DNA of 54,432 nt, from the IMG/VR virus record IMGVR_UViG_3300027777_000047, positions 1-54,432 of that record; one strand, 5' to 3'. Of the stretch, positions 12,558 to 35,186 are shown piece by piece (the first letter of the stretch is position 1; the number at the start of each line of letters is the position of its first letter). Source of the stretch: a virus. Its lineage: Duplodnaviria; Caudoviricetes. Made by a program: the position numbers and the translations under genes. The notes under the pieces are model-generated. The model searched no databases. It was not told where the DNA came from and worked only from the letters and a program-made list of their open reading frames with translations.

Positions 12558-12560
12558 GGG

Positions 12561-12779
12561 TTATCTCCTTTGTCCAAATCTAAAGTTCCAAGGCACGCCC
12601 AGTTCACCAGCGTTCACGCCAGTAGTAGAGCGCTGCGGCATTGCCTGCTGCGGCATCATTTGCTGGGGGGCTACTGCCACGGGCACGGGCACGGGTACTA
12701 CCTGCTGCGGCATGGGCTGCGCGGGTCTACCCAGCGTGTTAGCCATGGCTGCGGCTAGGCGGGGATTTACTTGGGGCAT
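12561..12779 (-). CDS. Hypothetical Pro/Gln-rich protein (72 aa)
   Basis: ORF with AGGAG RBS in the operon. Confidence 0.6.
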   Translation of the reverse strand: MPQVNPRLAAAMANTLGRPAQPMPQQVVPVPVPVAVAPQQMMPQQAMPQRSTTGVNAGELGVPWNFRFGQRR

Positions 12780-12784
12780 AGTGT

Positions 12785-13153: not shown

Positions 13154-13309
13154 TTACTGGGGCTCTGCTGGGGTGGCGGGGGTGGCGGGCTCTACAGCCT
13201 CTACAACATCCACCACGGGTACGCTAGCAACGCCAAAGTCAAACACCGCTTGCAGTCCGGCAGCGTGGCTAGTGCCTACGCCCGTTTTATAAATAGTGTC
13301 AAGGTCCAT
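13154..13309 (-). CDS. Small hypothetical protein (51 aa)
   Basis: Manually translated MDLDTIYKTGVGTSHAAGLQAVFDFG...PAEPQ; its stop abuts the next start. Confidence 0.6.
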   Translation of the reverse strand: MDLDTIYKTGVGTSHAAGLQAVFDFGVASVPVVDVVEAVEPATPATPAEPQ

Positions 13310-13508
13310 ATATACCTTCATAAGATTGGTCAGTGGAATCGAACTTACGCCCGTTGCTGAACTCGTAAATTCCGGGGTCAGGAGCTCTAAACTCAGCGCC
13401 CCATGCGCGGGTGGCTAGGTCTAGCCAGCTAGTAGTACGTGTTGTGACCTTACTGTTGATCATGTTCAGCGTAGCTAGGTTTTGTAAAGGCTGGGTAGTC
13501 TGGCCCAT
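13299..13508 (-). CDS. Hypothetical protein (about 69 aa)
   Basis: ORF with AAGGA RBS; contains YEFSNGRKF. Confidence 0.6.
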   Translation of the reverse strand: MGQTTQPLQNLATLNMINSKVTTRTTSWLDLATRAWGAEFRAPDPGIYEFSNGRKFDSTDQSYEGIYGP

Positions 13509-13577
13509 GTGCACGTCCTTTGTAGTGGCGGGGGTGCGGAGCCCCCATGCGCGGCATTATGCCACAACCGCCAGACC

Positions 13578-13730
13578 CTACTTTTTCTTTGCTGTCTTTG
13601 CAGACTGCACAAAGTCGGCTTTAGTAGGGGCGTCTTTGCTGCCCACCTTACGCATCCGCTCGCCAGAGCCGTTTTTAATGCGCTCTTGCTTTGCGTGGAT
13701 GTTAGCGTAGAGCCCCGGTTTAGTAGCCAC
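13578..13730 (-). CDS. Small Lys-rich basic protein (50 aa)
   Basis: GTG start; MATKPGLYANIHAKQERIKNGSGERMRKVGSKDAPTKADFVQSAKTAKKK, a recurrent small-protein family in aquatic phages. Confidence 0.75.
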   Translation of the reverse strand: MATKPGLYANIHAKQERIKNGSGERMRKVGSKDAPTKADFVQSAKTAKKK

Positions 13731-13881
13731 TTTTACCCCGCGTGCCCTTGTGCATTGTGGGCTCCATCTTCTTTTCCATGGCAGAGTAGGCTTTTTTGCC
13801 CGGTGCCATTTTCTTTTCTTTAGCTTCGTTAGCCTTAGTTTCAGGTTTACCGAAGGGATTCATTTTCTTTGTCGTAGCCAT
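13720..13881 (-). CDS. Small Lys-rich basic protein (53 aa)
   Basis: MATTKKMNPFGKPETKANEAKEKKMAPGKK...; AAGGA RBS. Confidence 0.65.
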   Translation of the reverse strand: MATTKKMNPFGKPETKANEAKEKKMAPGKKAYSAMEKKMEPTMHKGTRGKSGY

Positions 13882-13893
13882 AGTAATTCCTTT

Positions 13894-14154
13894 TTACCAT
13901 TTAACTTTATTCGCCCAGTATGCCGCAGACATAGGGCCCTTTGCAATGTTCTCGGCATGACGTGCCTTGAACGCCTCGTTTCGGGCAGACCCGGCAGGGC
14001 TACCCTTAACTCCTTGTTGACCAAAGTGAATTGTCTTAACTTGGTCGCCAGATTTTGCCACTACAACATGGCTTTTTGTAGGGTGACTAGGCGTAGCCTT
14101 GGGTTTGTTGTACCCGGTTACGCCAGCGCGCTCTAGTCTTGGGTCTTTGCTCAT
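13894..14154 (-). CDS. Small basic protein (86 aa, DUF5754-like)
   Basis: KTIHFGQQG...FKARH...SAAYWANKVKW motifs. Confidence 0.75.
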   Translation of the reverse strand: MSKDPRLERAGVTGYNKPKATPSHPTKSHVVVAKSGDQVKTIHFGQQGVKGSPAGSARNEAFKARHAENIAKGPMSAAYWANKVKW

Positions 14155-14157
14155 AGT

Positions 14158-14301
14158 TTAACGCTTCCGTTGGTCTTGGGCGGCTTGCCGCTTTACACTG
14201 TAGGCGATTGCCACCGCTTGCTTGACGGGCTTACCGGCTTTGACCTCGGTTTTAACATTAGCACGGAACGCTTGCGGCGTAGTGGACTTTTTTAGTGGCA
14301 T
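14158..14301 (-). CDS. Small basic protein (47 aa)
   Basis: MPLKKSTTPQAFRANVKTEVKAGKPVKQAVAIAYSVKR..., a recurrent phage family; AAGGAG RBS. Confidence 0.75.
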   Translation of the reverse strand: MPLKKSTTPQAFRANVKTEVKAGKPVKQAVAIAYSVKRQAAQDQRKR

Positions 14302-14315
14302 GGTAGGGGTGCTCC

Positions 14316-15914
14316 TTAAATAAACTCGGGTTCTGCGTAGTCGGGTTCTCGGTAGCTGGGGGCTTTGGGCTGCATGTCGTAAATACGGGCTAGGGCGTCA
14401 ATAAGGTCGACCCGGCCCCCGTGCGGGAAAAAATGAATCTGCATTTTAAGGTCTGCCACTACGTCGTAAATCTCACCGGTCTTGGTTTTGCGGCGTATGG
14501 GTTTAGAAATTCTAAAGTCCTGCCCGCTAGCGCCAAACCGCCGCTGCGTGGTGGTTAGCTTGTTAACGTCGGTGGGGTAGGGTATGTACAACTTACCGGC
14601 TCTAAGGTCGGGGCTCAGGCGTTGTACGCGGTCGGTTTTGCCACCCTCGCCATCACGCGGCCATGCAAGCTCCACTATGGGGAAGGTGCCGCCCTCGTCG
14701 GGTTTGCGCATCTGTTCTTCAAAGTAGTCAAGGTCGGCTTGCGCGCCAAAGGCCTCGTAGCCTACGTAGCAGTTGCGCACGCCGGGGCTGGCTTTCCATT
14801 TATGGTAGAGCATGGCGGTACGCTCCCAGCGCTCCCTTAAATCCATTTGGTGGTTAAATCCGTCCAAAATGTACTTGTTCATGCCGTAGTCTAGGCCCAG
14901 CACCACAATGCCGGTCTTGGCGCTGTTTTTCTTTTTACTGCGGGCGGGGTCCACTAAAATGTACACGTTAAGCGTCTCGGGGCGTACCTCGTAATATCTA
15001 AGGTCCTCAACGTTGAACATGCGCTGCTGGCCGCTAAGGGGGTCTTGCAGCATTTGGCAGGCAATGGTGGCCTCGCCTTGGGCTTTAACCTTTTCGTCCC
15101 ACACGTCTTTGCTAAACAGCACGGGCGCACCGTCTATCTTGCCGGTGTCGGTAGCGGGGTACTTGCGCAGCTTGGCAACTTGGCGCTCCATAATGGTTTC
15201 GTAGGTGTCGGCGTAGCTGTAGCGGGTGCCTATGTGCCATTTGCGGCCTCCGGCGCTGCCCAAGTTGTCGGACATTTCCCATGCGGCGGTGGTCTTTTGT
15301 ATTTGCTCGGGGGTGCTAACGCTCTCAATCGTAACTACGTCGTCATACACAAGCAAGGCAAAGTGTTTACTGGTGGGTTGGCCGTCTACTAGGCCGTGGG
15401 CCTCAAGTGTGGCCTCCTTGGGGTTGCTGCCCCGGCGCACTACAATGCCGTTGTCAAGGCTCCAGCTAGGGCTTTCCCGGCTGGGGTTGCTGTACAACAC
15501 GGTAGGGAACAACGCTTTAAGCTCCTCGTTGCCTTCAAGCTCTTTTTGTATCTGGCGCAAAAACGCTTTGGCAATGGGCTTTGTGTGGCTGAATAACCCT
15601 ACAGTAATGTCGGGGTTCTTCAATATCTCTTGTATTATGCCCGCAAAAGTTATTATGGTGCTCTTGTAGTGTTCGCGGGCCCACAGGTCTAAGTAGCCGT
15701 CGGGCTCGCGCTCAACCTCGCGGCACCGAGCGTAAAGCCATTCGTGTATAGCGTCTACCCGCTTAAGGGTACGCACAAGTAAATAGAATCTATCATTTTG
15801 GCTGAGCCAGACCTTAGCTGGGTCTCCAGCCTGTTCCTCAAGAATTTTCCAAAGCTGCGCTATCTTGTCGAATGGTGCATCTAAGAGCTGCTGCTTTAAG
15901 CGATCAGGGAACAT
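14316..15914 (-). CDS. terL: Terminase large subunit
   Basis: Deviant Walker A (AREHYKST), Walker B (LVYDDVV), GTRY coupling motif, nuclease motifs ILVDPA and DLIDALA. Confidence 0.92.
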   Translation of the reverse strand: MFPDRLKQQLLDAPFDKIAQLWKILEEQAGDPAKVWLSQNDRFYLLVRTLKRVDAIHEWLYARCREVEREPDGYLDLWAREHYKSTIITFAGIIQEILKNPDITVGLFSHTKPIAKAFLRQIQKELEGNEELKALFPTVLYSNPSRESPSWSLDNGIVVRRGSNPKEATLEAHGLVDGQPTSKHFALLVYDDVVTIESVSTPEQIQKTTAAWEMSDNLGSAGGRKWHIGTRYSYADTYETIMERQVAKLRKYPATDTGKIDGAPVLFSKDVWDEKVKAQGEATIACQMLQDPLSGQQRMFNVEDLRYYEVRPETLNVYILVDPARSKKKNSAKTGIVVLGLDYGMNKYILDGFNHQMDLRERWERTAMLYHKWKASPGVRNCYVGYEAFGAQADLDYFEEQMRKPDEGGTFPIVELAWPRDGEGGKTDRVQRLSPDLRAGKLYIPYPTDVNKLTTTQRRFGASGQDFRISKPIRRKTKTGEIYDVVADLKMQIHFFPHGGRVDLIDALARIYDMQPKAPSYREPDYAEPEFI

Positions 15915-16468
15915 TCTCGCCTCTCTAGAATACACTCTCCGTAAGCAATTCGTGTGGAGATTGCTCCGTAATGAAATATAGCTTGTGTGGCCTTGCCACG
16001 TCGTATGGAGGCAGTGACTTTGGTCCTATACTCGGGTGTTTTCCACTGAGCTACACGCAGCTCCCCTAAAGATTTACGTTTTTGGGGGTCTGCCCACGTG
16101 GCTACATTTGCTGCTGCATTAGCTTGCCGTGCTGCTGAACTTTTCCACTGCTCGGTAGATTTTGCTGAGATCTTAGTCCTTACTTCTCCGTGTGGGTCTA
16201 GCACACCCTCACCACCAGCGGTCATATTGTAGGCCGGAGCATACACCTTTATGGCCCGCTGCTCCATAGAACAAAGTGACTCCCAGTCATCGCAAATGAT
16301 TAAAGTCTCCACTTTTGGCACCCCATACTTAGCAATGGCTTTAGTAACTAAGTGTCTAGGGTTTTTTGAACCTTTAACGTGTCCCTTTAGCCTGCGCTCC
16401 GCTGTAGAGCGCGTTATACCTATGTAGGTCTTTCCATTAGGGAAGCTAAGTTGGTACAGACACCCCAT
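15896..16468 (-). CDS. Free-standing GIY-YIG homing endonuclease
   Basis: CLY-x9-YIG, conserved Arg (ERRLKGH), Glu (MEQRAI) and YNMTAGGEG; inserted between terS and terL and overlapping both. Confidence 0.85.
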   Translation of the reverse strand: MGCLYQLSFPNGKTYIGITRSTAERRLKGHVKGSKNPRHLVTKAIAKYGVPKVETLIICDDWESLCSMEQRAIKVYAPAYNMTAGGEGVLDPHGEVRTKISAKSTEQWKSSAARQANAAANVATWADPQKRKSLGELRVAQWKTPEYRTKVTASIRRGKATQAIFHYGAISTRIAYGECILERRECSLIA

Positions 16469-17180
16469 CTCGGATCTCCCCTACGTCAATCACCTCCAGG
16501 GACTTAGCGTCCTCAGGCGTGGGGGCCTGCAAGGCCAGCACGGCGTCAAACTTAGCCATAATTTTGTCAAGACCCTTGGTAACCGCCTCAGGGGGGCGTA
16601 CGGCGTCGGGGTCTTCAATCAAGCCGCTAATACCAAACGCTTGGCGCTCAAGCAACACCAGTGTTTTGAGCGCGGTGGCTAGGGCGTTTATGCTGGTTAC
16701 GCGCTCGGGCATGCTAATTACGCGCCGGTAGGCGGCGTTAAGCCTATCTATGCCACGGTCGTCCGGGGCGTTGAGTAGCTCGCCTAAACCCTCAAACTCC
16801 TCAATACCAACAGTTACAGCGCTAAGCTCTTCAAGCAGTTGGCTAACAATTTTACGCGCGGCTTTAATGTCGGTGCGGTGGTCCACCAACACCGTGCTCT
16901 GCATAGTGGCGGTAACGGCAATAACCTCGGTGCGTAAAGCGTCGCGCTCGGCGCGGTAGCGCTCGGCGGCTTTGGCGTCAATCTCCTCCTGCAAGCGGCG
17001 GCGGGCAAGGGGGTCGCGTAGCCAGCCGTTACGCGTGGCGCGGTTGCTTATGGCGCTGTCGGTGCTGCCAATATCAAGGGCTATGCTGCGTATGGATTTA
17101 ACGCCAAGTTCGTACTGGGCTTGGGCGTAGGCCCAGTCGCCGGCTTTGTCGGGCAGGCGGGCGGGGGTGGCTGTTGCCAT
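16446..17180 (-). CDS. terS: Terminase small subunit
   Basis: N-terminal HTH (SIRSIALDIGSTDSAISNRATRNGW), helical core and LERQAFGI motif; upstream of terL. Confidence 0.75.
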   Translation of the reverse strand: MATATPARLPDKAGDWAYAQAQYELGVKSIRSIALDIGSTDSAISNRATRNGWLRDPLARRRLQEEIDAKAAERYRAERDALRTEVIAVTATMQSTVLVDHRTDIKAARKIVSQLLEELSAVTVGIEEFEGLGELLNAPDDRGIDRLNAAYRRVISMPERVTSINALATALKTLVLLERQAFGISGLIEDPDAVRPPEAVTKGLDKIMAKFDAVLALQAPTPEDAKSLEVIDVGEIRDGVSVPT

Positions 17181-17405: not shown

Positions 17406-17677
17406 AATAGGGTAACTCCTGTAAAAGTAAGGCCCGCGCAGTGTAGCACAAAAAATTTGGGAGTCCAAAATTTATAGCTTGCTACAAAGTAGTCAGTGCT
17501 AAAAATCGAGCGTCGAAAAAATTTAGAGCTGTGGACTCAGTGCTATGACTGAGGCAGGCCCTAGAGCCCTGCACCACTCGATGGTTCTGGTCAATTCGGC
17601 TCAGGTCAACCCGGTACCTTGAACGATCCTTGTCGATTCTGTAATCGTGGTCGCTCAGCTCAGGGTCGCTGAGCTCA

Positions 17678-17760
17678 GGGCACGTGGGCTCGGGGCTGAG
17701 TGGGTTCGGTGGGCACGTGGGCTCGGGGCTGAGTGGGTTCGGTGGGCACGTGGGTTCGGT
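17678..17760. repeat. 33-bp tandem repeat (two full copies plus one deleted copy)
   Basis: GGGCACGTGGGCTCGGGGCTGAGTGGGTTCGGT at 17678 and 17711; GGGCACGTGGGTTCGGT at 17744. Confidence 0.95.
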
Positions 17761-17861
17761 GTAAGGTTCATGTAAGGTGCCAACCTTACACCAACCTTAC
17801 AAGGGTCCAGGTGCTGGGTTGTAAGGTTCATGTAAGGTGCCAACCTTACACCAACCTTACA
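17760..17861. repeat. 42-bp direct repeat x2, each copy containing inverted TGTAAGGT/ACCTTACA boxes
   Basis: TGTAAGGTTCATGTAAGGTGCCAACCTTACACCAACCTTACA at 17760 and 17820; the half-unit recurs at 18463-18487. Confidence 0.95.
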
Positions 17862-17907
17862 CCGACGCCCGGTTTAACTTTACAAAACTTTACACGGCAT
17901 GACCGTT

Positions 17908-17923
17908 TATAGCGCGCTATAAT
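17908..17923 (+). promoter_or_regulatory. Promoter with palindromic TATAGC-N2-GCTATA element overlapping TATAAT
   Basis: TATAGCGCGCTATAAT, then a hairpin and CTAACTAGGAG RBS before the ATG at 17970. Confidence 0.8.
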
Positions 17924-17969
17924 GTAAGCGTGTACCAATCCCGGTGCACTGTACTAACTAGGAGGCCTT

Positions 17970-18410
17970 ATGGCACGCAAAGCAAAATCCCCCGCCCCAG
18001 TGGCAAACCCCGTGGTCGAAGTAGAGGCCGTTGAAGTGGCCGCAAACCCTTTCGCCGGTCTGTTGGCCGCACCAGTGGCACCAGTGGCACCAGCTAAGGT
18101 GCATGCCGTGGCCGTGGGCGGTGAGACCTATGTGGCCGCAAACCACGTAGCTACCTACAAAGGCACGCGTCCCGTGGCCGTGGGCGGTGCCACCTACCAA
18201 CTGACCGGGCTGCCCTATAACCCTACCGCCGGGCACGTTAACGCATTACAGTGGCAGGCTGTGCTGGACGCTATTGAGGCCAATGACGGCGAGCCCGTTA
18301 CCGTGGCGCAAGTGGCAGCGCAGTACCCGGCCGGTATCGCAGCCGGTAACGCAGCCGGGTTCTTGGCCTACCGGGCTAAGGGTGCAAAGCCGAATGTTGA
18401 ACTAGCATAG
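17970..18410 (+). CDS. Early hypothetical protein (146 aa)
   Basis: Has its own promoter, AGGAGG RBS and terminator. Confidence 0.8.
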   Translation: MARKAKSPAPVANPVVEVEAVEVAANPFAGLLAAPVAPVAPAKVHAVAVGGETYVAANHVATYKGTRPVAVGGATYQLTGLPYNPTAGHVNALQWQAVLDAIEANDGEPVTVAQVAAQYPAGIAAGNAAGFLAYRAKGAKPNVELA

Positions 18411-18429
18411 GGTTTACCCTTAGCCCCTG

Positions 18430-18454
18430 AAACCCGGCCCCGGCCGGGTTTTTT
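18430..18454 (+). terminator. Rho-independent terminator
   Basis: AAACCCGGCC-C-CGGCCGGGTTTTTT GC stem followed by a U-tract. Confidence 0.85.
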
Positions 18455-18701
18455 GCGCCCGGAACCTTACACCAACCTTACACCGACAACGATTGCCGAT
18501 CTGACCACGACCGCCGACCCGACCCGACGACCAGAGACGAGACGAGATGACCTGAGATGATTCTGGTCAGCTCTAGTATTAAATACATTTTGGATCAAAT
18601 AAGAAACTCGCGCGCGTAGGTATCAGTATAGAGTCTGGTCAGCTCAGCGGTCAGCCCCAAGTGCTGACCATTTAGTTTGCCCGCTGACAACTCTGGCCCC
18701 C

Positions 18702-18748
18702 TATAATTGGCATGCCAGCAAATGGCTGGTGGTCTAATTACTAAGGGG
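18702..18748 (+). promoter_or_regulatory. Promoter -10 plus leader hairpin and RBS
   Basis: TATAAT at 18702, CCAGC-AAATG-GCTGG hairpin, CTAATTACTAAGGGG before the ATG at 18759. Confidence 0.6.
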
Positions 18749-18758
18749 TATTCGCACT

Positions 18759-18965
18759 ATGACCGCACTCACAACACCCACACAAATCAACGCTTACAGG
18801 CTAGCCACTCTGCGTAGTGCGCTTAGGCTAGAGTCTAAGGGCATGCGTATGAGTCGGGGTCCAACGGCCCTGTCTATTCTGCGGGGTATGGGCTACAGCG
18901 GCACCCGTACCGCTGTGCTGGCTCAAGTGACCGCCGACGTAGCCGCCAGCATGCAGGAGCACTGA
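18759..18965 (+). CDS. Early hypothetical protein (68 aa)
   Basis: LRSALRLESKGMRMSRG; promoter and RBS upstream. Confidence 0.75.
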   Translation: MTALTTPTQINAYRLATLRSALRLESKGMRMSRGPTALSILRGMGYSGTRTAVLAQVTADVAASMQEH

Positions 18966-18967
18966 GC

Positions 18968-19135
18968 ATGGCCAAACGCACTTACGAAGTTGAGCTAAAG
19001 TACGAGGCCTACGTGGTAGTGACTGTAGACGCCGACAGCGAGGACGACGCCGAGGCTCTTGCAATGGCAGAAGCCGCGCACCTTATTGATAATGGCGGGG
19101 GTTGGACGCTCGAGTCTATTGAGGAACTGGCCTGA
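18968..19135 (+). CDS. Small acidic protein (55 aa, DpnD/PcfM-like pattern)
   Basis: Manually translated MAKRTYEVELKYEAYVVVTVDADSEDDAEALA...ESIEELA. Confidence 0.7.
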   Translation: MAKRTYEVELKYEAYVVVTVDADSEDDAEALAMAEAAHLIDNGGGWTLESIEELA

Positions 19136-19147
19136 GCGCTCAGCACC

Positions 19148-19187
19148 AAGGGCTCCACACTCTGGTTGTGTGGGGTCCTTTTATTTT
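19148..19187 (+). terminator. Rho-independent terminator
   Basis: AAGGGCTCCACAC...GTGTGGGGTCCTTTTATTTT. Confidence 0.7.
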
Positions 19188-19399
19188 AGCCCGGCAAAGT
19201 CAGCTCCAGTCTGGGGTCTAAAAGACTAAGTTCTTTCCAATCAAATCCTAAACTCGCGCGTATAGGTATCCAAGTATTCGGCTTTTGGGGCCAAAATTTA
19301 CTACCAAGGGGCCGTTGACTCGCCACCATTTTGAGCCCCTAGCCCTTAGACAAAAACCCTACCAACTCAGCCCCCGCGCCCCATTTTGGTGGGTTTACA

Positions 19400-19670
19400 G
19401 TCCAAAGCCCAAAATTGGTAGCAAGGACCCAAAAATAGGACCGTTGTTTTATATAGCTTTTTTGCCACAATAACAAGTAGCATGGGTACCCAATACCACG
19501 TATTAAATTAAATATATTATGTTAAGTAGGCAGTTTCACATAGTGTAGGGTTATATATTTGCTAGTTACCATGCTACTAAGAATTAAAAACACTATACAA
19601 TACAACAACTTACGCGGTAGCAAGCACCTCGCTACCTCCACGCTACCATGCTACCACCACTTTTAGGAGC
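19400..19670. other. Candidate replication origin
   Basis: Very AT-rich core (about 19500-19610) flanked by GTAGCA/GCTAC repeats in both orientations, upstream of the primase-helicase. Confidence 0.45.
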
Positions 19671-19678
19671 CTAGACCC

Positions 19679-19975
19679 ATGCCTAATGACTCAAGAAACC
19701 TCCCCTTTTTAAAGCCCGGTGGGTCATTTGTAACGGACCCCATAAGTAGACTTACGCTGTTCCTTAAACGCACGCCTGCTATTCAGCAGCTACAGTGTCC
19801 CCCCTATACCGAGCGCGTTAACCCCACGTGGCGTTTTATAGTGAATGGCGTACCTTGCGAAGTAGAGCGTAGCGACAAGCGATTTTACTTGCGCACTGGA
19901 CGTAAACTTTTGCTTGATAGCACTTACACACGGGGCCAGAGCGGGCGGTTAGAGTCTAATATTCTAGCCTTGTAG
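19679..19975 (+). CDS. Hypothetical protein (98 aa)
   Basis: AGGAG RBS. Confidence 0.6.
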   Translation: MPNDSRNLPFLKPGGSFVTDPISRLTLFLKRTPAIQQLQCPPYTERVNPTWRFIVNGVPCEVERSDKRFYLRTGRKLLLDSTYTRGQSGRLESNILAL

Positions 19976-20108
19976 CGCCCTGCCCAATGCTATACTGGCC
20001 CAAGGCAACAAAAAAGCCACGCGGGGCTGAATCCGGTGGCTTTTAGACTTCTACTTCTACACTTCTACTAGGACAACGCTCAGCAATGAGCGCTGGGTAC
20101 ATTATACC

Positions 20109-22271
20109 ATGTTAGCCTATTCGCAGGTTAAGGGCACTACGCCCCATGCACACGTCACCCCCCCTGAGGTTATTAAATACTTAGCCGACCGCGGAATAAG
20201 TATCACCCTTGCCGCGCAGCTAGAGCTCAAAGTGCTTAGCGCGCAAGCCCTAATGGAGGCCGCACGGGGCATAGTTAGCGCATACGAGGACGACCGGTAC
20301 GCTATAGTGTTCCCCCACCATAGTCCACTGGGGTTTGAAATTGAGTGGTGGAGCGCTAGGCTCGTACCCCGCCGCCCCGCTGCTGACCCCACCCCCCTGC
20401 GGGTGATACACAGTTTTGCCGCTGCCGTTGACCCCACCCTGGCCCCAGCCTACAAACTAGGCAAGATGTTCTGCCCGCCAAGCACTCCGCCAGCAGCGTA
20501 TCTACCCCATGCAGCTACCTTACCCGACTGGACCAAGCTGCCCCGGGGCGCGCGGGTGTTCTTTCATGAGTCAGTCATAAAAGCGATCAATGGTGCGCGG
20601 TTGGGGCACTACAGCATCGGGCTAAACGGCGTGTGGGGTTGGTCTAGCCGCAAGCACCAAATAGCTCTGCTGCCCGAGATTAGAGACATACCTTGGCGCG
20701 CTTTAGAGCTTGAGCCTGTTATTTTGTTTGACACCAACATTAACACCAGCTTCCAAGTTGAGGAGGCCGCCAAGCGCTTAGCCGCTAAGCTGCTAGAACT
20801 TACCGGACGCACGGCGCGTATTCTGCGCATGCACACCAGTGCCGATTTACTTGGTGGTGCCGACTACGGGTTTGACGACTTTGCCGTTACTGTTGGCAAC
20901 ACCCACGCCAAGGCTTTGCTAGACACCCCTTGGCCCGACCTTGAGGAGATTGACATAAGCGAGGTCGAGCTTATGAAGTTCGCCTTGAACAGCAAAGTAG
21001 CCGTGGTGCGTAGTATGAGTAGGGTTGCCGATATTGAGAGCGGTGCTTTAATGACCACTAGCTCTTTTACCGAGCTTGTGTACGCGCACTATCAAGCCCA
21101 AGTGCCTTTGCCCGACGGCACTACTAAGGACGTCAACGTAGCCAAGCTCTGGCTAAAAGACGAGCGTAAGTTGCAGGTAGAGGGTTTGATGTACAGCCCC
21201 GGCCAACCCACCATCCACATGGACGCTGCCGGTAAGGCGTACCTCAACACATGGCGGGGTATGGGCTTAACCCCAGACCCCGGCCTTGTAGACCAGTGGC
21301 TTGGGCTGCTGAGCGCCAACCTTGGAGATTTAGACTTGCAGGAGTGGGTGCTTAACTGGCTGGCGTATCCGTTACAGCACCCGGGCGCTAAGTTGAACAC
21401 CCTGCTGTTGATATTTGGCCCTAGCGGCACGGGTAAAGACCTATTCCTCACACCCATGCACGCTATCTACGGCAACAACGCGGTTAAAGTGAGCAATGAC
21501 GAACTTAAGTCCACCTTTACAAGTCTGTACGCTGCGCGGCAGTTCATACACGCGGACGAACTTAAACGCACCCCCAGCGCCAGCGACAGCGTAAACCAAA
21601 AGATTAAAGGCATGGTCACCAACGCCACCATGACCGTTAACCGCAAAGGCGACCCCGAGTATAAGATCCGCAACGTAGCCAACTTAGCGATTACCAGCAA
21701 CTACTACGACTGTATCAAACTAGACGAGGACGACCGCAGAGCCGCTATTATACGTTGGAGCCCTGTTACCGAGGCCTTAGACATGCGCGGCATGCAGGGT
21801 TACTGGCGTCCGTTGGCCGCGTGGTTGACCAGCACCGCTGGGGCGGCAGCTATCTACGCTTACTTACTAGACCGTGACCTAACCGGGTTTGACCCCGCCG
21901 CGTGGGCTCCCACTACTGTGTGGAAAGAACAGGTGATAGACGCCGCGCGCTCCCCTATTGAGCGGTTTGCTGCTCAGCTTAAAGTAGAGCCCGAACTACA
22001 CTTGCCCCCGTTAACCGATGGCCGCGTGCTATTCACGGCTAAAGAACTTGCCATGTACCACTACGGCCTAGAACCCGCCAAGGGCCAGATAGACGCCTTG
22101 GCTAACGAACTCCGTAACCAGAATTTTGTACGCGCCAACCGCGACAAATCCATTAAAAGCAAGGGCGGTGGAGTTAACCGTTACTGGGTAGTTCAACGGG
22201 CCGACTTGCCCATACAAGACTGGCAAGACCCCACCGTGTGTGGGAAGCATTTAAGGGCACACGGACTTTAA
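20109..22271 (+). CDS. Primase-helicase (DUF3854-like N-terminus plus DUF5906/SF3 NTPase)
   Basis: FFHESVIKA...GLNGVWGW...ILFD...GFDDF primase-like region; Walker A GPSGTGKD, Walker B IHADE, ITSNY...DDRR. Confidence 0.85.
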   Translation: MLAYSQVKGTTPHAHVTPPEVIKYLADRGISITLAAQLELKVLSAQALMEAARGIVSAYEDDRYAIVFPHHSPLGFEIEWWSARLVPRRPAADPTPLRVIHSFAAAVDPTLAPAYKLGKMFCPPSTPPAAYLPHAATLPDWTKLPRGARVFFHESVIKAINGARLGHYSIGLNGVWGWSSRKHQIALLPEIRDIPWRALELEPVILFDTNINTSFQVEEAAKRLAAKLLELTGRTARILRMHTSADLLGGADYGFDDFAVTVGNTHAKALLDTPWPDLEEIDISEVELMKFALNSKVAVVRSMSRVADIESGALMTTSSFTELVYAHYQAQVPLPDGTTKDVNVAKLWLKDERKLQVEGLMYSPGQPTIHMDAAGKAYLNTWRGMGLTPDPGLVDQWLGLLSANLGDLDLQEWVLNWLAYPLQHPGAKLNTLLLIFGPSGTGKDLFLTPMHAIYGNNAVKVSNDELKSTFTSLYAARQFIHADELKRTPSASDSVNQKIKGMVTNATMTVNRKGDPEYKIRNVANLAITSNYYDCIKLDEDDRRAAIIRWSPVTEALDMRGMQGYWRPLAAWLTSTAGAAAIYAYLLDRDLTGFDPAAWAPTTVWKEQVIDAARSPIERFAAQLKVEPELHLPPLTDGRVLFTAKELAMYHYGLEPAKGQIDALANELRNQNFVRANRDKSIKSKGGGVNRYWVVQRADLPIQDWQDPTVCGKHLRAHGL

Positions 22272-22284
22272 AGCACGCTATAAT
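22269..22284 (+). promoter_or_regulatory. Promoter element TAAAGCACGCTATAAT
   Basis: Copy of the conserved motif, followed by a CCAGC/GCTGG hairpin and TAGGAG. Confidence 0.75.
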
Positions 22285-22336
22285 TGCCTTGCCAGCAACC
22301 CGCTGGTGTTCTAATTAACTTAGGAGCATCCATACT

Positions 22337-22573
22337 ATGGGGCAAGTCAAACAATACTATTACAGCTGTCGTTCTTGCGGTGATTGCATAGACCCCGAGC
22401 GTTACGCGCTGGGTTACAGAGTGTGTTTACCGTGTGGCGAGCAAGCCGCGCGCGTAGAGCGCACTAGCTGGTGCGTGGTGCAGGAGTACAGCAAAGGCGC
22501 GTATCAGTTGGTGACGGCCAGTGCAGCTTCCGTAACCTTACGACAAACCAACCCCAAGGAGCAGCGCACATGA
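22337..22573 (+). CDS. Small zinc-finger protein (DksA/TraR C4-like pattern)
   Basis: CRSCGDCIDPERYALGYRVCLPC. Confidence 0.7.
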   Translation: MGQVKQYYYSCRSCGDCIDPERYALGYRVCLPCGEQAARVERTSWCVVQEYSKGAYQLVTASAASVTLRQTNPKEQRT

Positions 22574-22812
22574 CTAAAGTAGTTGCCGGACACAACGACC
22601 CGGGCTACCTGCCCGACGAAGACCCCATTGAGTGCGAAAACCTACAAGAGGCAATACGTTACCTCATGCAAGCAGTGGCCACATACTTCCGTATTGAAAT
22701 AGACGAGATAGAGCTTACCGTGCATGATGTAATGCGTTTCCAGCGGGCGGTAATGAACGCCGAGCCGGGCAGCACGTACATTTTCCGGGGCCATGCGTTC
22801 TGGGTGCACTAA
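22570..22812 (+). CDS. Hypothetical protein (80 aa)
   Basis: ATGA-coupled start MTKVVAGHNDPGYLPD. Confidence 0.7.
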   Translation: MTKVVAGHNDPGYLPDEDPIECENLQEAIRYLMQAVATYFRIEIDEIELTVHDVMRFQRAVMNAEPGSTYIFRGHAFWVH

Positions 22813-22814
22813 AC

Positions 22815-23036
22815 ATGTACTACAAAGACTTTGGACCCTGCGTCCGCATTGAGTATTTAAACAGTCCGCGTGATCTAGCATACGACATCATGGTTTGCAC
22901 TAAACAGCCTAACGACACTTGGCTAGCCTATCGTGGCTTTAACAGTTTGAGCAACGACTACGCCTTTACCAGCGCCAAAGAGCTAGCAGTCGAGCTGGAA
23001 CAAAAATATAAAAATAGTTGTGCGCCGACTATATAG
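22815..23036 (+). CDS. Hypothetical protein (73 aa)
   Basis: ORF in the early operon. Confidence 0.7.
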   Translation: MYYKDFGPCVRIEYLNSPRDLAYDIMVCTKQPNDTWLAYRGFNSLSNDYAFTSAKELAVELEQKYKNSCAPTI

Positions 23037-23047
23037 CACGCTATAAT
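23032..23047 (+). promoter_or_regulatory. Promoter element TATAGCACGCTATAAT
   Basis: Conserved motif, CCCAG/CTGGG hairpin and CTAACTAGGAG. Confidence 0.8.
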
Positions 23048-23097
23048 TAATTACCGGCCCAGCGGTTTTCTGGGTGTACTAACTAGGAGCATCTAGC

Positions 23098-23565
23098 ATG
23101 AAATCTTTAACTGCCGCGCTTGCTGACCGCAAAGCCGACATTGCCCGCCAAGCCTCTAATGTCAAAACACTGAGCCGGGTGGTAAAAGCGACTAACTTGG
23201 CCCGGGCGTTTGACCGCCTAGTGGCCCACTGCCCCCAAGCCGAGCTTATGGTGTACAGCTACAGCGTCTACATTGATGTGCCTGTAAAAAGCATGCAGCA
23301 CATGACTGACGCTTTAGAGTTTTTTGAGAATGAGCTGGGTGTCGAGTTCACCTCCACTAGAGACGAACCTACCGGCGGCGTGCGCCAGTTTGACATTGGC
23401 TGGCAGAGCGCCGAAAAGCTGGGCTTTTGGCTTTACGTCCGCGCGCTGATTAGGGGCAACGAAGACGACCCCACCGCCACCTGCAAACGCGTGCAGACCG
23501 GCGTTAAGATGGTTGAGCAACCAGTTTATGAAATACAGTGTGCTGAACAACTTGCTGTTGCATGA
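23098..23565 (+). CDS. Hypothetical early protein (155 aa)
   Basis: Own promoter and RBS; C-terminal TCKRVQTG...VYEIQC. Confidence 0.8.
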   Translation: MKSLTAALADRKADIARQASNVKTLSRVVKATNLARAFDRLVAHCPQAELMVYSYSVYIDVPVKSMQHMTDALEFFENELGVEFTSTRDEPTGGVRQFDIGWQSAEKLGFWLYVRALIRGNEDDPTATCKRVQTGVKMVEQPVYEIQCAEQLAVA

Positions 23566-23568
23566 GTT

Positions 23569-23584
23569 TATAGCACGCTATAAT
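23569..23584 (+). promoter_or_regulatory. Promoter element TATAGCACGCTATAAT
   Basis: Conserved motif, CCCGG/CCGGG hairpin and CTAACTAGGAG. Confidence 0.8.
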
Positions 23585-23636
23585 GTAGGTACTGGCCCGG
23601 CAGCTTCCGGGATTGCACTAACTAGGAGAGTTTTAA

Positions 23637-31586: not shown

Positions 31587-32090
31587 ATGAATATCTTCTT
31601 CTTAGATCGGTGTCCATTCACCGCTGCGCGGCATCAACATGACAAGCATGTTGTAAAGATGTGCTTAGAGACCGCGCAAATCCTGTGCACCGTGGGACAT
31701 AGCGTAGGCGCGCAAGTGCCCTACAAACCCACGCACGCAAAGCACCCATCTGTACTATGGGCAGGCGCAAACTGCCATAACTTTGAATGGCTTGTTGACC
31801 ATGGCCTTGGCTTGTGTGATGAATACACTCACCGCTACGGCAAAGTGCATGCTTGCCAGCGCGTTATTGATGACTTGCAGCACGTAGGTAGACTGCTGCC
31901 CTTTACTTTGTGGACCGACCCCCCACAGTGCATGCCCCCCGAATACCAATGCCCCAACGACCCCGTTTTGGCTTACCGCACCTACTACATTCAGTGCAAA
32001 ATTAGCCAGTCTAAATGGACTAACCGCGAGCCCCCATACTTCGTATTAGATTCCCTACTGCCCAGCACGGGAATTAAAAGCATGGTATAA
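31587..32090 (+). CDS. Pyrimidine-dimer DNA glycosylase family protein
   Basis: MNIFFLD...DKHVVKMCLETAQILCT...YKPTHAKHPSVLWA...EYTHRYGKVH...AYRTYY. Confidence 0.8.
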   Translation: MNIFFLDRCPFTAARHQHDKHVVKMCLETAQILCTVGHSVGAQVPYKPTHAKHPSVLWAGANCHNFEWLVDHGLGLCDEYTHRYGKVHACQRVIDDLQHVGRLLPFTLWTDPPQCMPPEYQCPNDPVLAYRTYYIQCKISQSKWTNREPPYFVLDSLLPSTGIKSMV

Positions 32091-32091
32091 T
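32083..32091 (+). promoter_or_regulatory. Extended -10 promoter for the modification operon
   Basis: TGGTATAAT followed by an ~80-nt hairpin-containing leader and AGGA RBS. Confidence 0.55.
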
Positions 32092-32171
32092 TTACTCAAC
32101 CCCTAGAGCATTGGGGGCAAGCAAATTAGTGGTAAAGATGCTCCTTTACTGCGTTGTTTTTAGGAATTCAA

Positions 32172-32639
32172 ATGGCAAAAACCAAGTCTGCCCCCAAAGC
32201 CACCACCAAGCTCAATCCTAGCATCATCGCTACTAAGGCTATCATCAAAGCCTCCGTTGCCGAAAAAGCCAAGACCCGTGCCGGTGTGCGTGGACCCAAG
32301 GGCGTTGCACTGACCTCTGTAATCACGTTGCTCGCGGGTGCAAACCCCAAACGTCCTACCAGCAAAGCCTACGAGCGCTTTGCCGCCTATAAGGACGGCC
32401 TTACCGTGCAACAAGCACTGGACAGCGGCCTTACCACTCCCGATCTAGCCTACGACGCAGCCCACGGCTACATTGCTATTGAGGGCTATGCTGCGGAACT
32501 GGTTGTTAAAAAAGAGCGCCCAGTTAAAGAACCCAAAGCACCAAAGGCTAAGCGGGTGAAAGCTGAAAAAGTAACAGCCGTGGCTACCGAAGCGCAAAGC
32601 GAGTTGGAAGCCGCCACTGTAGAAGAGACCATCGACTAA
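32172..32639 (+). CDS. Basic putative DNA-binding protein (155 aa)
   Basis: Lys/Ala-rich arms around a compact NPKRPTSKAYERFAAYKDGLTV...DLAYDAAHGYI domain; first gene of the modification cluster. Confidence 0.7.
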   Translation: MAKTKSAPKATTKLNPSIIATKAIIKASVAEKAKTRAGVRGPKGVALTSVITLLAGANPKRPTSKAYERFAAYKDGLTVQQALDSGLTTPDLAYDAAHGYIAIEGYAAELVVKKERPVKEPKAPKAKRVKAEKVTAVATEAQSELEAATVEETID

Positions 32640-32643
32640 GAAG

Positions 32644-33411
32644 ATGCAAATCTTCATCCCCACCTATGGGCGGGCAGGTAGCCAGACTACCTACCGAGCA
32701 CTGGTGGGGGCGGGCCTTATAGTCACGCTCGTGGTCCAAGACCGCGAGCGTGATTTGTATTGTGCCTACCCCCACGTAGAAGTGCTACCGCCGCATATAC
32801 AAACCATTGCGCCCACGCGCCAATACATATTGGACCACTTAGTGCACTCGCGCACGTTTTGCATGGTAGACGACGACTTAGTGTTTTACGCCCGCCGCAC
32901 TGACGACCCCACCAAGCTACGTGACATCACCCCCACCGAGCTAGCGGCTGCATTTGCAGACATGGGGATGCACCTCAACTTGCCCGGCGTGGCGCATGTG
33001 GGTTTTGCCGCCCGCGAAGGCGCTAACCGCAATGTTGCCGAGTACTTGGATAACACGCGCATTATGCGAGTACTAGGCTACCACGCGCCCACGCTGACCC
33101 ATTTAGGGCTTAAGTTTGACGCCATGGAGGTGATGGAGGACTTTCACGTAGCACTTAGCCTGCTAGAGGCTGGCTACAGCAACCGGCTTATGAACCACTA
33201 CGCCCACAACCAAAAAGGGTCCGGCACTGCGGGGGGTTGCTCACACTTCCGTACACCGGAACTACACGCCAAAAACGCACACTTGTTGGCTGCGCTGCAC
33301 CCCGATGTGGTGAAAGTAGTGCAAAAAGAAACCAAGGGCGCATGGGGCGGGGGCACCCGCACAGACGTCAACATTCAATGGAAGAAGGCATATGGTAAAC
33401 GCACTAGCTAG
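32644..33411 (+). CDS. GT-A glycosyltransferase, GREB1/TET-associated (TAGT)-like DNA base glycosyltransferase
   Basis: IFIPTYGRA, IAPTRQYI, MVDDDL (DxD), MEDFHVAL, GGCSHFRT, IQWKKAY. Confidence 0.8.
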   Translation: MQIFIPTYGRAGSQTTYRALVGAGLIVTLVVQDRERDLYCAYPHVEVLPPHIQTIAPTRQYILDHLVHSRTFCMVDDDLVFYARRTDDPTKLRDITPTELAAAFADMGMHLNLPGVAHVGFAAREGANRNVAEYLDNTRIMRVLGYHAPTLTHLGLKFDAMEVMEDFHVALSLLEAGYSNRLMNHYAHNQKGSGTAGGCSHFRTPELHAKNAHLLAALHPDVVKVVQKETKGAWGGGTRTDVNIQWKKAYGKRTS

Positions 33412-34216
33412 CTACCCCCGCACCAGTGACCTTGCGTACTGGATAAACGAACGCGAGTCTATACGCCTGCGCAGACAAGCCGGTGCACCCGCCCCTTGGA
33501 CCATTGACCCCGACATGGCTAATGTGAGGTATTGCAATGTACATCGTGAAGACGATAAGGTTACTAAGTGGCTTCGTACTAACCCTGTGTATAGCGGCCC
33601 TGACGTTGCTGTTTGGCGCGTTGTGCTTAGCCGCATGGTCAACCGTATTAGCAGCTTGGAGGCTATTCAACTCTACGCTGAAGAGGATAGTTTGGTGGAC
33701 ATAAAAGCTATGCTAAAAGAGCTGCGCAAGCGTTGGACTATCTGGGGCAATGCGTACACCATAAGCACCTGCGGTAAGAGCATGGACAAAGTGGACTACG
33801 TACTTGACCACGTAGTTGCTGCTGTTAAACAGCGAGCGTTTATTTTTGACACCCTTGACAGTACACATCAACAACTAATGCGGGTTGACGGCCTTGGCAG
33901 TTTTTTGGCCGGCCAAGTGGTGGCAGACCTTAAAAACATGCCGGGGCATCCGCTAAGCGCAGCACCCGACTTTGACACCTTTGCAGTGCCCGGTCCGGGT
34001 AGCCTAAAGGGGCTTGCGGCATACTTTGGGGGGGTAGCTACACCGGGGCAGTTTAAAGCCCTGCTGGGCACCGCCACGGCCCAAGTGGCACCCCTGTTGG
34101 CAAATTACGTAACCCCCATACACGCACAGGACATGCAAAACTGTTTTTGTGAATTTAGTAAGTACATCCGCGTGCGCGAAGGCGGTAGAGCAAGGAACAA
34201 CTATGCACCTAATTAA
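33392..34216 (+). CDS. 5-hmdU DNA kinase-like protein (aGPT-Pplase1 / HMUDK helical family)
   Basis: WINERESIRLRR..G...PWT.DP...YCNVHREDDKVT, GLGSFLAGQVVADL, PGPGSLKGL, MQNCFCEFSKY. Confidence 0.85.
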   Translation: MVNALASYPRTSDLAYWINERESIRLRRQAGAPAPWTIDPDMANVRYCNVHREDDKVTKWLRTNPVYSGPDVAVWRVVLSRMVNRISSLEAIQLYAEEDSLVDIKAMLKELRKRWTIWGNAYTISTCGKSMDKVDYVLDHVVAAVKQRAFIFDTLDSTHQQLMRVDGLGSFLAGQVVADLKNMPGHPLSAAPDFDTFAVPGPGSLKGLAAYFGGVATPGQFKALLGTATAQVAPLLANYVTPIHAQDMQNCFCEFSKYIRVREGGRARNNYAPN

Positions 34217-35186
34217 AGTACGGAACATTAACCAAGCCGTTGACGAGGGCTTTAACTGGCTTAAAGTAGCCGGTGTGGACGAACCCAGCCGCAACGGCAC
34301 CGTGCGGGTGGCTCCCGGCCCGGTAGTTACCGAGTACACACACCCCACCGAGCGTGTGCTTTTTAACACAGACCGAGATGCTAACCCCGTGTTCCACTTA
34401 CTAGAGTCTTTGTGGATGTTGGCGGGGCGGCAGGACAGCGGCTTTTTACTACCCTACAACGCCCGCATGGCCGAATACGCCGAGCCTAATGGCGATATCC
34501 ACGGGGCCTACGGCTACCGCTGGCGCAACATGTTTGGCATAGACCAAGTGTTAGAAATTGTGCACGAGCTACGCAAATCGCCCAGCAGTAGACAGTGCGT
34601 TATGCAGATGTGGTCTGCTACGGCCGACCTTGGCTGTACCGCTAAAGACCGCCCCTGCAACACGCACATCTATTTTGACACTAGACCCTGCGCTACCGGC
34701 GCACGTAGCTTAAACATGACCGTGTGCTGCCGCAGTAACGACGCTCTTTGGGGTGCCTACGGCGCTAACGCGGTGCACTTTAGCGTGTTGCAAGAACTTA
34801 TGGCGCTGGGCATTGGAGTGCCCGTGGGCGTGTACAGACAGTTTAGCAATAACTTCCACGCATATACATCGGTGCCTTTAGCGGCGCAGTGGTTAAAGCA
34901 CCCCCCGGCATACGAACCCACCGCCTACCCACCCGTAATACCGTTGTTGACACCATTAGAAACGATTGAAGACTTTTACATGGACTGCCGTGCCTTGTGC
35001 AACCCACGCGCCGTGCAGACGTATGTAACTAACTTCTTTAACCAAGTGGTAGTGCCCTTAAAAACCGCCTACGACGCCCGCAAACTAGGTGCCCGCACTT
35101 GGCGCTTGCAGCTAGACCACATGCCCCACTGCGACTGGAAGGTGGCCTTTATTGAATGGACCGAGAGGAGACAACATGTCAGCTAA
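34203..35186 (+). CDS. Thymidylate synthase homologue, probable dUMP hydroxymethylase
   Basis: SRNG, RDANPVFHLLESLWMLAG, GAYGYRWR, catalytic DRPCN, RSNDALWGAYGANAVHFS (Asn at the dUMP-specificity position), NFHAY; flanked by the hmdU kinase-like gene. Confidence 0.85.
   Translation: MHLIKVRNINQAVDEGFNWLKVAGVDEPSRNGTVRVAPGPVVTEYTHPTERVLFNTDRDANPVFHLLESLWMLAGRQDSGFLLPYNARMAEYAEPNGDIHGAYGYRWRNMFGIDQVLEIVHELRKSPSSRQCVMQMWSATADLGCTAKDRPCNTHIYFDTRPCATGARSLNMTVCCRSNDALWGAYGANAVHFSVLQELMALGIGVPVGVYRQFSNNFHAYTSVPLAAQWLKHPPAYEPTAYPPVIPLLTPLETIEDFYMDCRALCNPRAVQTYVTNFFNQVVVPLKTAYDARKLGARTWRLQLDHMPHCDWKVAFIEWTERRQHVS

Follow-up and report, generated by a model that had tools for sequence, protein, structure and literature searches.

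Introduction

In satellite phage P4, ori and crr are bound by the alpha primase-helicase, and the repeats at these places are octamers. Ribbon-helix-helix proteins, including those of plasmid partition and the omega-type repressors, polymerise on contiguous boxes of 4-8 bp. In simian virus 40 (SV40), the origin-binding domains of T antigen bind four pentanucleotide repeats arranged head to head (PMC3401641, in excerpt). Here we describe arrays of the dinucleotide TC, phased at 5 bp, in the late/early control region of an uncultured tailed virus, IMG/VR record IMGVR_UViG_3300027777_000047. Its 54,432 bases, called the window below, make up one entire uncultured-virus record that is classed as linear and 93% complete. 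We propose, with a probability of roughly 50%, that the arrays are binding-site arrays for one conserved sequence-specific protein in an origin/early-promoter region.

Like the SV40/polyomavirus core origin, the locus has contiguous 5-nt units in opposed orientation beside an A+T-rich stretch, and in SV40 such units are read by an assembling helicase (PMC3401641, in excerpt). Unlike that origin, it has a different unit sequence, up to 19 units, a looser spacing of 5-7 bp and a bacterial host; the likeness, read here from sequence alone, is one of arrangement. As in P4, a gene for a fused primase-helicase lies beside clusters of short direct and inverted repeats at two separated places, but the TC arrays are pentameric, and the octamer-like iterons of the window (TGTAAGG and GGTAGCAAG) fit the P4 model better. 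Ribbon-helix-helix operators also have many very short boxes, direct or inverted, in a fixed register with free sequence between them; here, however, the register is 5-7 bp, and a gene for a ribbon-helix-helix or partition protein was not found close to them. A literature search on pentanucleotide repeats in bacteriophage replication origins matched only a helicase-loading review.

Results and discussion

Phased TC arrays in the control region

The arrays are a real marker of the early control region in this phage and its relatives (Table 1). A sequence-only reading of the window had listed TC and GA positions here, and each of them was correct. Array A opens with an exact ladder of five TCs (17586, 17591, 17596, 17601 and 17606), and the 19 GAs of array B, at 18485-18560, include an exact seven-step ladder of period 5 from 18529 to 18559. 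Three-step TC ladders stand at 18562/67/72, 18634/39/44, 19200/05/10 and 19236/41/46. The second half of array A was also given as a TC array, and its TCs are present (17645/51/55/60/66/75), but at spacings of 6, 4, 5, 6 and 9 they form no exact ladder. The arrays lie, as reported, at the late/early strand switch and after the two intrinsic terminators (18429-18454 and 19148-19190), and those at 17.6 kb and 18.5 kb are oppositely oriented. TC density is 14.6 per 100 nt on the plus strand of 17578-17680, against a genome mean of 4.2, and GA density is 20.9 per 100 nt at 18485-18575, against 3.6. At least five in-phase TCs or GAs within 40 bp occur at only two places in the 54-kb window, both of them these arrays. 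No dinucleotide other than TC/GA gives a period-5 ladder of at least five, and in a scan of the 16 dinucleotides at periods 3-12 the seven-step GA ladder was the longest in the window outside a CAGGAG array at 49.9 kb and its adjoining run of three-base period.

Phasing was tested by counting same-strand TC-TC and GA-GA pairs at a lag of 5 and comparing them with 1000 dinucleotide-preserving shuffles of each stretch. All three non-coding stretches exceeded the shuffles, in line with the 5-bp phase that had been claimed: 6 pairs against 2.1+/-1.3 expected at 17469-17969 (z 2.9, p 0.015), 15 against 2.3+/-1.4 at 18411-18758 (z 8.9, 0/1000 shuffles) and 4 against 0.9+/-0.9 at 19136-19678 (z 3.3, p 0.010). 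Ladders of five and seven were reached in 0/1000 shuffles, where the maximum was four. The ladder at 19236-46 belongs to the first half of a 31-nt repeat. Only a single TC occupies the corresponding stretch of the other copy (18594-18624), and because that copy lacks a ladder, we take this one as chance. We also considered arrays A and B as homologous copies and rejected the idea, as their local alignment was beaten by 4/500 shuffles and a same-orientation control gave 24 vs 26.

Recurrence in related phages

A search with the small terminase gene (terS) gave three related loci from 29 matched viral-contig stretches and 55 from 309 matched metagenome stretches, and loci without synteny or enough upstream sequence were left out. 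Those kept were L004 (71-77% identical in terS), L007 (64%), L011, which equals L063 (40%), and the cut loci L005 and L006. The primase of L007 is 77% identical to that of the window (372/486), and of the 10 stretches matched in a primase search of viral contigs two were relatives, each of them remote (29% identity).

The relatives share a common plan. It runs from a late promoter region with AAAATTT boxes through a GA-rich tract in the terS sense, tandem repeats and iterons, gene 1, its terminator and further iterons to a late-sense TC array, an A+T-rich core with AACTCGCGC and early-sense TC units. The order of terminator, iterons, minus-strand TC array, A+T-rich core and plus-strand 12-mer with TC units is the same in the window, L007 and L011. 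Beside the gene-1 terminator the lag-5 z is 3.8 in L004, 6.6 in L007 and 5.3 in L011, that is, in 3/3 syntenic relatives, with ladders of 6 in L007 and 5 in L011. The sequence-only reading had named absence from relatives as evidence against a system here; instead, phased arrays stand at this place in all three, and the phasing recurs while the intervening sequence diverges. On the terS side the lag-5 z is -0.2 in L004, 3.2 in L007, 2.2 in L011 and 3.0 in L005. The strongest of the 25 terS loci scanned, L040 with 10 lag-5 pairs, was set aside as a 15-nt repeat inside an open reading frame (ORF) in an unrelated context.

The iterons around gene 1 differ from phage to phage (TGTAAGG in the window, a 17-nt unit repeated nine times in L007 and the CCAGCAGG type in L011) and keep their position. 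Such turnover at a fixed position is the pattern expected if the iterons were co-evolving with a protein that sets specificity, for example the product of gene 1.

The repeated unit and a conserved 12-mer

Thirteen arrays from five phages were cut at each TC, which gave 142 gaps with peaks at 5 (50 gaps), 6 (24) and 7 (15). Of the five-base units, which number 50, 37 have A or T at position 3 (22 and 15, respectively), 41 have G at position 4 and a single one has A at position 5; TCTGG and TCAGC are the commonest, with 9 copies each. Given the G at position 4 and the A/T at position 3, the unit is therefore not a bare dinucleotide: it is TC(A/T)G(G/C/T), repeated at a spacing of 5-7 bp. The earlier claim that only the dinucleotide and its spacing are conserved has to be given up on these counts, and a whole 12-mer is invariant in relatives besides. 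The arrays, 327 nt in all, hold 18 copies of TC(A/T)G, compared with 4.7 per kb per strand genome-wide.

The best copy of the unit is this 12-mer, TCTGGTCAGCTC, with TC at 0, 5 and 10. Two exact copies make up the three-step ladders at 18562 and 18634, while the ladder at 17586 includes a copy with two mismatches and that at 19200 is a permuted 12-mer. Further exact copies lie at 2447 in L007 and 1858 in L011; all are early-sense, and in these three phages they are placed 18-24 nt downstream of AACTCGCGC or CCTCGCGC. The two relatives with the letter-perfect 12-mer are only 64% (L007) and 40% (L011) identical in terS, and the spacers around it have otherwise diverged almost wholly. Neither the 12-mer nor the AACTCGCGC core is found anywhere else in the window.

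Beyond these relatives, the 9-mer core TCTGGTCAG occurs only once, both strands counted, in the 47.5-kb genome of Stenotrophomonas phage AXL3, in sense and ~270 nt upstream of the homologous primase gene, where we estimate a chance expectation of ~0.001 (~300 nt, one orientation). Pseudoxanthomonas phage PW916 carries it at the equivalent place, and the two phages were counted as one observation. The non-coding DNA of AXL3 has no phased array. A search of viral contigs for ACTCGCGC-N8-30-TCTGGTCAGCTC returned five stretches, one of which is the L011 phage (L063); the other four lie in apparent coding sequence of unrelated contigs and were discarded as chance. Among the matches listed for the 9-mer and the 12-mer in literature full text, in either orientation, no related paper was seen by title or abstract.

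Slippage and strain-level variation

Replication slippage could generate tandem units beside a conserved 12-mer seed, in which case the phasing would be a functionless by-product. Tandem Repeats Finder (TRF) detects CCGAC x3 (score 30) and an 18-mer x1.9 in array B, 15-bp and 33-bp tandem repeats lie in or beside array A, L007 contains (GGTC)x3, and the contigs of L005 and L006 end in long CAG repeats at the array place. Strain-level variation is in keeping with such a process. We compared 4/24 public runs, as assembled contigs, in which a strain ~3% diverged, X4, was recovered and unitigs break within the tandem repeats at 17707-17861. In X4, gene 1 is replaced by unlike sequence, as are genes 2-3; the repeats differ in copy number; array B goes on as another run of GAC-type units; and a 13-nt unit is repeated where the window has other sequence. 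The region evolves ~4x faster than the flanking genes (13 differences/123 bp vs 25/~1080 bp).

Other features of the same sequences are harder to reconcile with neutral slippage, and we think it an unlikely explanation. The pentamers of the ladders are mostly distinct (5/5 in array A and 5/7 in array B), and TRF calls neither the 17586-17606 nor the 18529-18559 ladder a tandem repeat. An invariant TC and a G at position 4, amid otherwise variable positions, are seen independently in the window, L007 and L011, and arrays stand at the equivalent place in relatives down to 40% terS identity. Furthermore, the X4 differences listed (38/40) include 13 substitutions at 17578-17700, none of which hits the 16 TCs there (p ~0.02 by our estimate); one gives rise to an additional TC, and another changes TCGAT to TCAGA. 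A decayed pentamer microsatellite, which the sequence-only reading had itself offered as a way to be wrong, agrees only in part with these data: the phasing is significant, and the unit positions are unequal, with TC fixed and G at position 4 in 41/50 of units that were TC-spaced by choice, but array B is partly tandem.

Arrays as proposed sites for a DNA-binding protein

We read the arrays as binding sites because they are unique to the control region, their sequence core is kept, the 12-mer travels with replication genes, and no structure or RNA family was found for them. Folding showed no excess in the arrays (z -0.07 and -0.01) and no unusual single-strand structure as RNA or DNA, and Rfam returned three sub-threshold matches only (E 0.5-0.7). 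As at iterons and operators, a repeated motif with a conserved core is clustered in non-coding control DNA; as in SV40, opposed units (array B on the minus strand, the 12-mer and array B2 on the plus strand) flank the 65% A+T core, and they do so in L007 and L011 as well. What the sequences show is the nature of the unit, how it is phased, where it lies and that it is conserved; binding by a protein, the identity of that protein and the consequences set out here are inferred.

Short recognition units, 5'-TC(A/T)G(G/C/T)-3', repeated head to tail every 5-7 bp, would form docking platforms on which many copies of one conserved DNA-binding protein could align side by side. One platform would run rightward at 17.6 kb and another leftward at 18.5 kb, with rightward copies beyond the 65% A+T core that holds AACTCGCGC. 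The 5-bp phase would be a mere reflection of unit length. Replication slippage would expand, shrink and scramble the arrays, while selection would retain TC and the G at position 4. As protein-loading platforms, if that is what they are, the arrays would provide a concrete origin/early-control architecture for little-known freshwater phages with a fused primase-helicase, and a bacterial-virus case of contiguous pentamer recognition, which is otherwise known from small eukaryotic DNA viruses.

The protein that would read the arrays may be the phage primase-helicase acting at a replication origin; it is the candidate that we favour, by analogy with SV40 T antigen, although we hold it less likely than not. 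A regulator of the early transcription units would be the alternative. Sites for a primase bear on this question. Phage T7 primase initiates at 5'-GTC-3', extended to GGGTC, TGGTC or GTGTC (PMC2910064), and proteobacterial DnaG primase initiates at CTG (PMC2978363). The 327 nt of arrays contain 10 copies of TGGTC or GGGTC, compared with 2.1 per kb per strand genome-wide (~15-fold), and, as for T7 primase sites, those of each arm lie on the would-be lagging-strand template of a fork leaving the centre. Unlike T7 sites, however, the units have G before TC in only 20/50 cases, and elsewhere the genome is depleted of TC on what would be the lagging-strand template.

Several points weigh against binding-site arrays in an origin/early-promoter region. 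The full region is kept in only three relatives (L004, L007 and L011 = L063), to which the cut L005 and L006 are added; the unit logo is biased, as its units were picked by a TC-TC distance of 5; the shuffles preserve dinucleotides but take no account of tandem duplication; and the TRF calls given above make array B in part a simple tandem repeat. L004 lacks an exact 12-mer and shows no phasing on the terS side, where L011 shows little, and MW202621, whose primase is equally related, lacks TCTGGTCAG. As to a binder, gene 1 as a candidate has no family match in Pfam, which also gave nothing for the small early ORFs, and the AlphaFold model of gene 1, built on a four-sequence alignment, is poor (mean predicted local distance difference test score 49). 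Its C terminus is compatible with a winged helix, at low model confidence. In the primase-helicase no DNA-binding domain was recognised, and that its DUF5906 helicase domain belongs to the SV40/P4 superfamily is our assumption and not a result of this analysis. A sigma-70 scan yielded 3 sites vs 2.3 expected, none at the AACTCGCGC element, and GC skew has no turning point at 17-19 kb. Finally, the region at 19400-19670, with other iterons and 70% A+T, is a better-looking origin; the origin itself could lie outside the TC arrays. This region, beyond the coordinates given in the sequence-only reading, is a candidate DNA-unwinding element. Its 17-mer CTTACGCGGTAGCAAGC is identical in L004 and L007; the core of this 17-mer, which we take to resemble the RfaH antiterminator recruitment element, could equally be an origin iteron.

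TC avoidance on the sense strand

It had been noted that the genome otherwise avoids TC, and we find the same, with an overall odds ratio of 0.64 and ratios of 0.34-0.45 for the sense strand in the three high-GC gene blocks. The depletion is confined to the sense strand, is strongest at 1-17180 (-), 19679-36766 (+) and 44703-52874 (-), and affects all three codon phases (odds 0.60, 0.29 and 0.46). Codons ending in C are preferred except after T: NTC:NTT is 299:1112 (our sum over four families), compared with, for example, 534:161 for GAC:GAT. All flanking contexts are affected, so the depletion is not specific to TC(A/T)G. A low-GC minus-strand block at 38500-44700 (0.37-0.44 vs ~0.53 elsewhere), which may have been recently acquired, shows a much weaker TC depletion (0.67).

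The relatives differ in this respect. In terS and the large terminase gene (terL) the TC odds are 0.17-0.23 in the window, 0.09-0.11 in L005, 0.65-0.75 in L007 and 1.14-1.15 in L004. At identical amino acids in these two genes, 59 NTC codons of L004 correspond in the window to 34 NTT, 14 NTA, 4 NTG and 7 NTC, while in control codon families 110 Cs are kept and 45 Ts have become C. Conserved serines that are TCN in L004 are AGY in the window at 13/16 sites. Because TCN cannot become AGY by a single mutation, the purge was probably driven by selection and not by a deaminase-type mutational bias; it looks like recent, lineage-specific selection against TC/UC in single-stranded form. Such a strong purge, absent in the closest relative L004, points to a TC/UC-directed activity in phage-host conflict and may be the more important lead.

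In connection with such selection, the arrays might act as RNA or single strands, with UC-rich tracts serving as decoys or as cleavage or termination signals that insulate the late and early modules. Besides the replacement of serine codons, such a role would agree with where UC-rich RNA could arise: from array A only in antisense transcripts running out of the late block, and from array B only in transcripts running leftward to the late block. Array B2 is closely preceded by a promoter-like element and followed by a hairpin, and the arrays are unstructured as RNA. Since the depletion is general for TC and not for TC(A/T)G, and since L004 has arrays without depletion, we regard an RNA signal as quite unlikely.

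Thymidine hypermodification

Base J is a hypermodified thymine derived from hydroxymethyluracil that is found at kinetoplastid strand-switch regions, where it is not known to occur in phased pentamers. The present locus is like it in its association with a hydroxymethyluracil-derived thymine, here through genes only, and in its place where transcription units meet; it differs in that the arrays are phased pentamers. The window encodes a complete-looking thymidine-hypermodification cassette. It includes a 5-hydroxymethyldeoxyuridine (5-hmdU) DNA kinase (33392-34216; PF18723, E 1.9e-37) with relatives in M6-like phages and phiW-14, a thymidylate-synthase homologue (PF00303, E 1.1e-19; phrog_5131, E 1.6e-96), a TET-associated-type glycosyltransferase (PF20691, E 8.1e-19) and a glycosylase-like protein (PF03013, E 7.4e-5). 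The glycosyltransferase hints at a sugar-bearing thymine derivative. The kinase had no match in the 11-kb fragment of L005, a negative that carries no weight.

If, as the sequence-only reading supposed, the T in TC were hypermodified, here by this pathway, the arrays would be dense tracks of bulky bases that could act as a polar barrier to polymerase or replisome, an ejection pause or end protection. Thymidine hypermodification is described as sequence-specific (Lee 2018, PMC5889632, in excerpt), and in the excerpted account of M6, ViI and phiW-14 a TG/TC context is inferred from restriction resistance only (Flodman 2019, PMC6449724). TC is moreover the invariant part of the unit, and the arrays, which stand after terminators, lie on both sides of gene 1 in opposite orientations. 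A dinucleotide track would, however, need neither the G at +3 nor an invariant 12-mer. L004 has an array of 11 TCs in 66 nt at the equivalent place, yet its sense-strand TC odds are 1.14-1.15, and Ab18, an M6-like hypermodifying phage, has neither TC depletion nor TCWG arrays. In the 50 kb of Ab18 that were scanned, six windows reach five in-phase TC/GA. One of them, at 31537-31572 in non-coding DNA before terS, consists of GAGTC/GACTT units and was dismissed as chance in a TC-rich genome.

The starting points of the idea, namely hypermodification genes, avoidance of TC and a conserved phase, are borne out, but we consider modified tracks improbable on this balance. Because L004 has an array without depletion and Ab18 has neither, the link between the arrays and TC avoidance is weak. 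The broader proposal that a host or phage factor purged TC from the mRNA-like (possibly lagging-template) strand, with the arrays, the one place of deliberate TC concentration, as hypermodified-T tracks or as decoys or barriers for that factor, would likewise be a long shot. If true, modified bases would here form a physical signal that is strand-polar and written into the sequence of a bacterial virus. In any case, the arrays offer a clean substrate for asking which context the 5-hmdU DNA kinase modifies, a point on which the cited papers bear only indirectly.

The terminase side

Array A lies ~400 nt upstream of terS, where a GA-rich tract in the terS sense is kept in L004, L005/L006, L007 and L011. 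On the minus strand, the second part of array A contains GACCACGAT-type motifs, which also occur upstream of terS in L005 and L006. A site of this kind might serve in packaging or ejection, as a recognition sequence for the small terminase (pac/cos) or as an injection-stop region next to a genome end, and the L005 and L006 contigs do end 390 and 508 nt upstream of terS. These ends, however, are in CAG repeats, which alone break assemblies; short upstream lengths are, in our reading, not clearly enriched among the 55 metagenome loci; and the window contig runs through the region. The 12-mer, too, is on the primase side, and its 9-mer core recurs in AXL3 and PW916, neither of which is among the 25 terS matches. 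We saw no molecule ends at the region in the assembled contigs of the 4/24 public runs. In HK639, which has a related terS at the start of its record, coding sequence extends up to both record ends and leaves no usable end sequence for a cos comparison. Overall, a packaging or ejection signal seems very improbable.

The CAG repeats are long and partly degenerate (L005 1-80, L006 1-200), and the window has other tandem repeats in their place. In addition, a GIY-YIG homing-endonuclease gene (15896-16468, minus strand) is inserted between the small and large terminase genes of the window, whereas the two genes abut or overlap directly in L004, L005, L007 and L011.

Gene layout and other features

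All genes are directed away from the late/early control region (Table 1). The late genes run leftward from ~17.4 kb and encode a conserved 72-amino-acid (aa) ORF, the small terminase, the GIY-YIG endonuclease, the large terminase and the portal. The early genes run rightward from 17970 and include those for the primase-helicase, a family-A polymerase, a PD-(D/E)XK nuclease and an SNF2 helicase. For the polymerase and the primase the nearest counterparts are in AXL3 and PW916, at 38% and 27% identity. No DNA match to the array region, or to 20 kb around it, was found among 50,697 phage records, and a tRNA search found none.

Table 1. Features of the control region and of genes discussed in the text (window coordinates unless a relative is named; a dot marks features on neither strand in particular)
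Feature	Position	Strand	Remarks
Small terminase (terS)	16446-17180	-	Late block, leftward
Array A, first part	17578..17612	+	TC ladder of 5: TCTGG TCAAT TCGGC TCAGG TCAAC; two-mismatch 12-mer at 17586
Block CCCGGTACCTTG	17610..17621	.	Letter-for-letter in L004 and L007; divides the halves of array A
Array A, second part	17622..17680	+	TC units at 4-9 bp; includes 15-bp tandem repeat x2 (GGTCGCTCAGCTCAG)
33-bp tandem repeat x2.5	17678..17759	.	Copy number strain-variable; public unitigs break here
Two 42-bp palindromic clusters	17760..17861	.	Each with four TGTAAGG 7-mers at 11-13-bp spacing (iterons or operators)
Gene-1-flanking iterons	17760-17861 and 18461-18482; L007 2545-2710; L011 2040-2170
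Early gene 1	17970..18410	+	146 aa; N terminus Ala/Pro/Val-rich; C terminus three helices
Gene-1 intrinsic terminator	18429..18454	+	10-bp GC stem, then U6; -18.4 kcal/mol
Two more TGTAAGG iterons	18461..18482	-
Array B	18485..18560	-	19 TC on the minus strand, ladder of 7; units include TCAGG, TCTGG, TCGGG x2, TCGTGG, TCAGA
12-mer TCTGGTCAGCTC, copy 1	18562..18573	+
31-nt repeat, copy 1 (core AACTCGCGCG)	18594..18624	+	Within 60 nt that are 65% A+T; promoter-like in its position alone
Array B2	18634..18669	+	12-mer copy 2, then TCAGC, TCAGC and a 7-bp hairpin
Genes 2 and 3	18759..19135	+	68 and 55 aa; variable cassette between two repeat modules
Intrinsic terminator of second early unit	19148..19190	+	-22 kcal/mol
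Array C	19197..19222	+	TCAGC TCCAG TCTGGGG TC; permuted 12-mer
31-nt repeat, copy 2	19240..19270	+	84% identical to copy 1
GGTAGCAAG-type iterons, both orientations	19400..19670	.	Flank 126 nt of 70% A+T; iterons conserved in L004 and L007
Primase-helicase	20109..22271	+	PF12965 DUF3854 and PF19263 DUF5906; PHROG 'DNA primase'; 77% identical to that of L007
Thymidine-hypermodification cassette	31587..35186	+	Glycosylase-like, no-match ORF, glycosyltransferase, 5-hmdU DNA kinase, thymidylate-synthase homologue

In T4-type phages, promoter/stem-loop 'mobile regulatory cassettes' flank shuffled small early genes. The window is similar in that a repeated module of terminator, TC motif and 31-nt element (84% identical between copies) stands on either side of genes 2-3. 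L007 and L011 lack homologues of these genes, although gene 4 has one in L007, and in strain X4 they are swapped for 462 unlike letters. Because genes 2-3 are absent from L007 and L011 and replaced in X4, the duplicated module appears to bracket a swappable gene cassette. The likeness to T4 cassettes accounts for the duplication of the module and not for the role of the TC units.

Two further observations concern the window as a whole. The contig ends inside open minus-strand frames (1-1281 and 53823-54431) that are one base short of joining, so the assembly probably broke inside one long tail gene and not at a genome end. The CAGGAG hexamer occurs ten times at 49899-49958, inside a large minus-strand ORF, and gives the longest dinucleotide ladders of the window.

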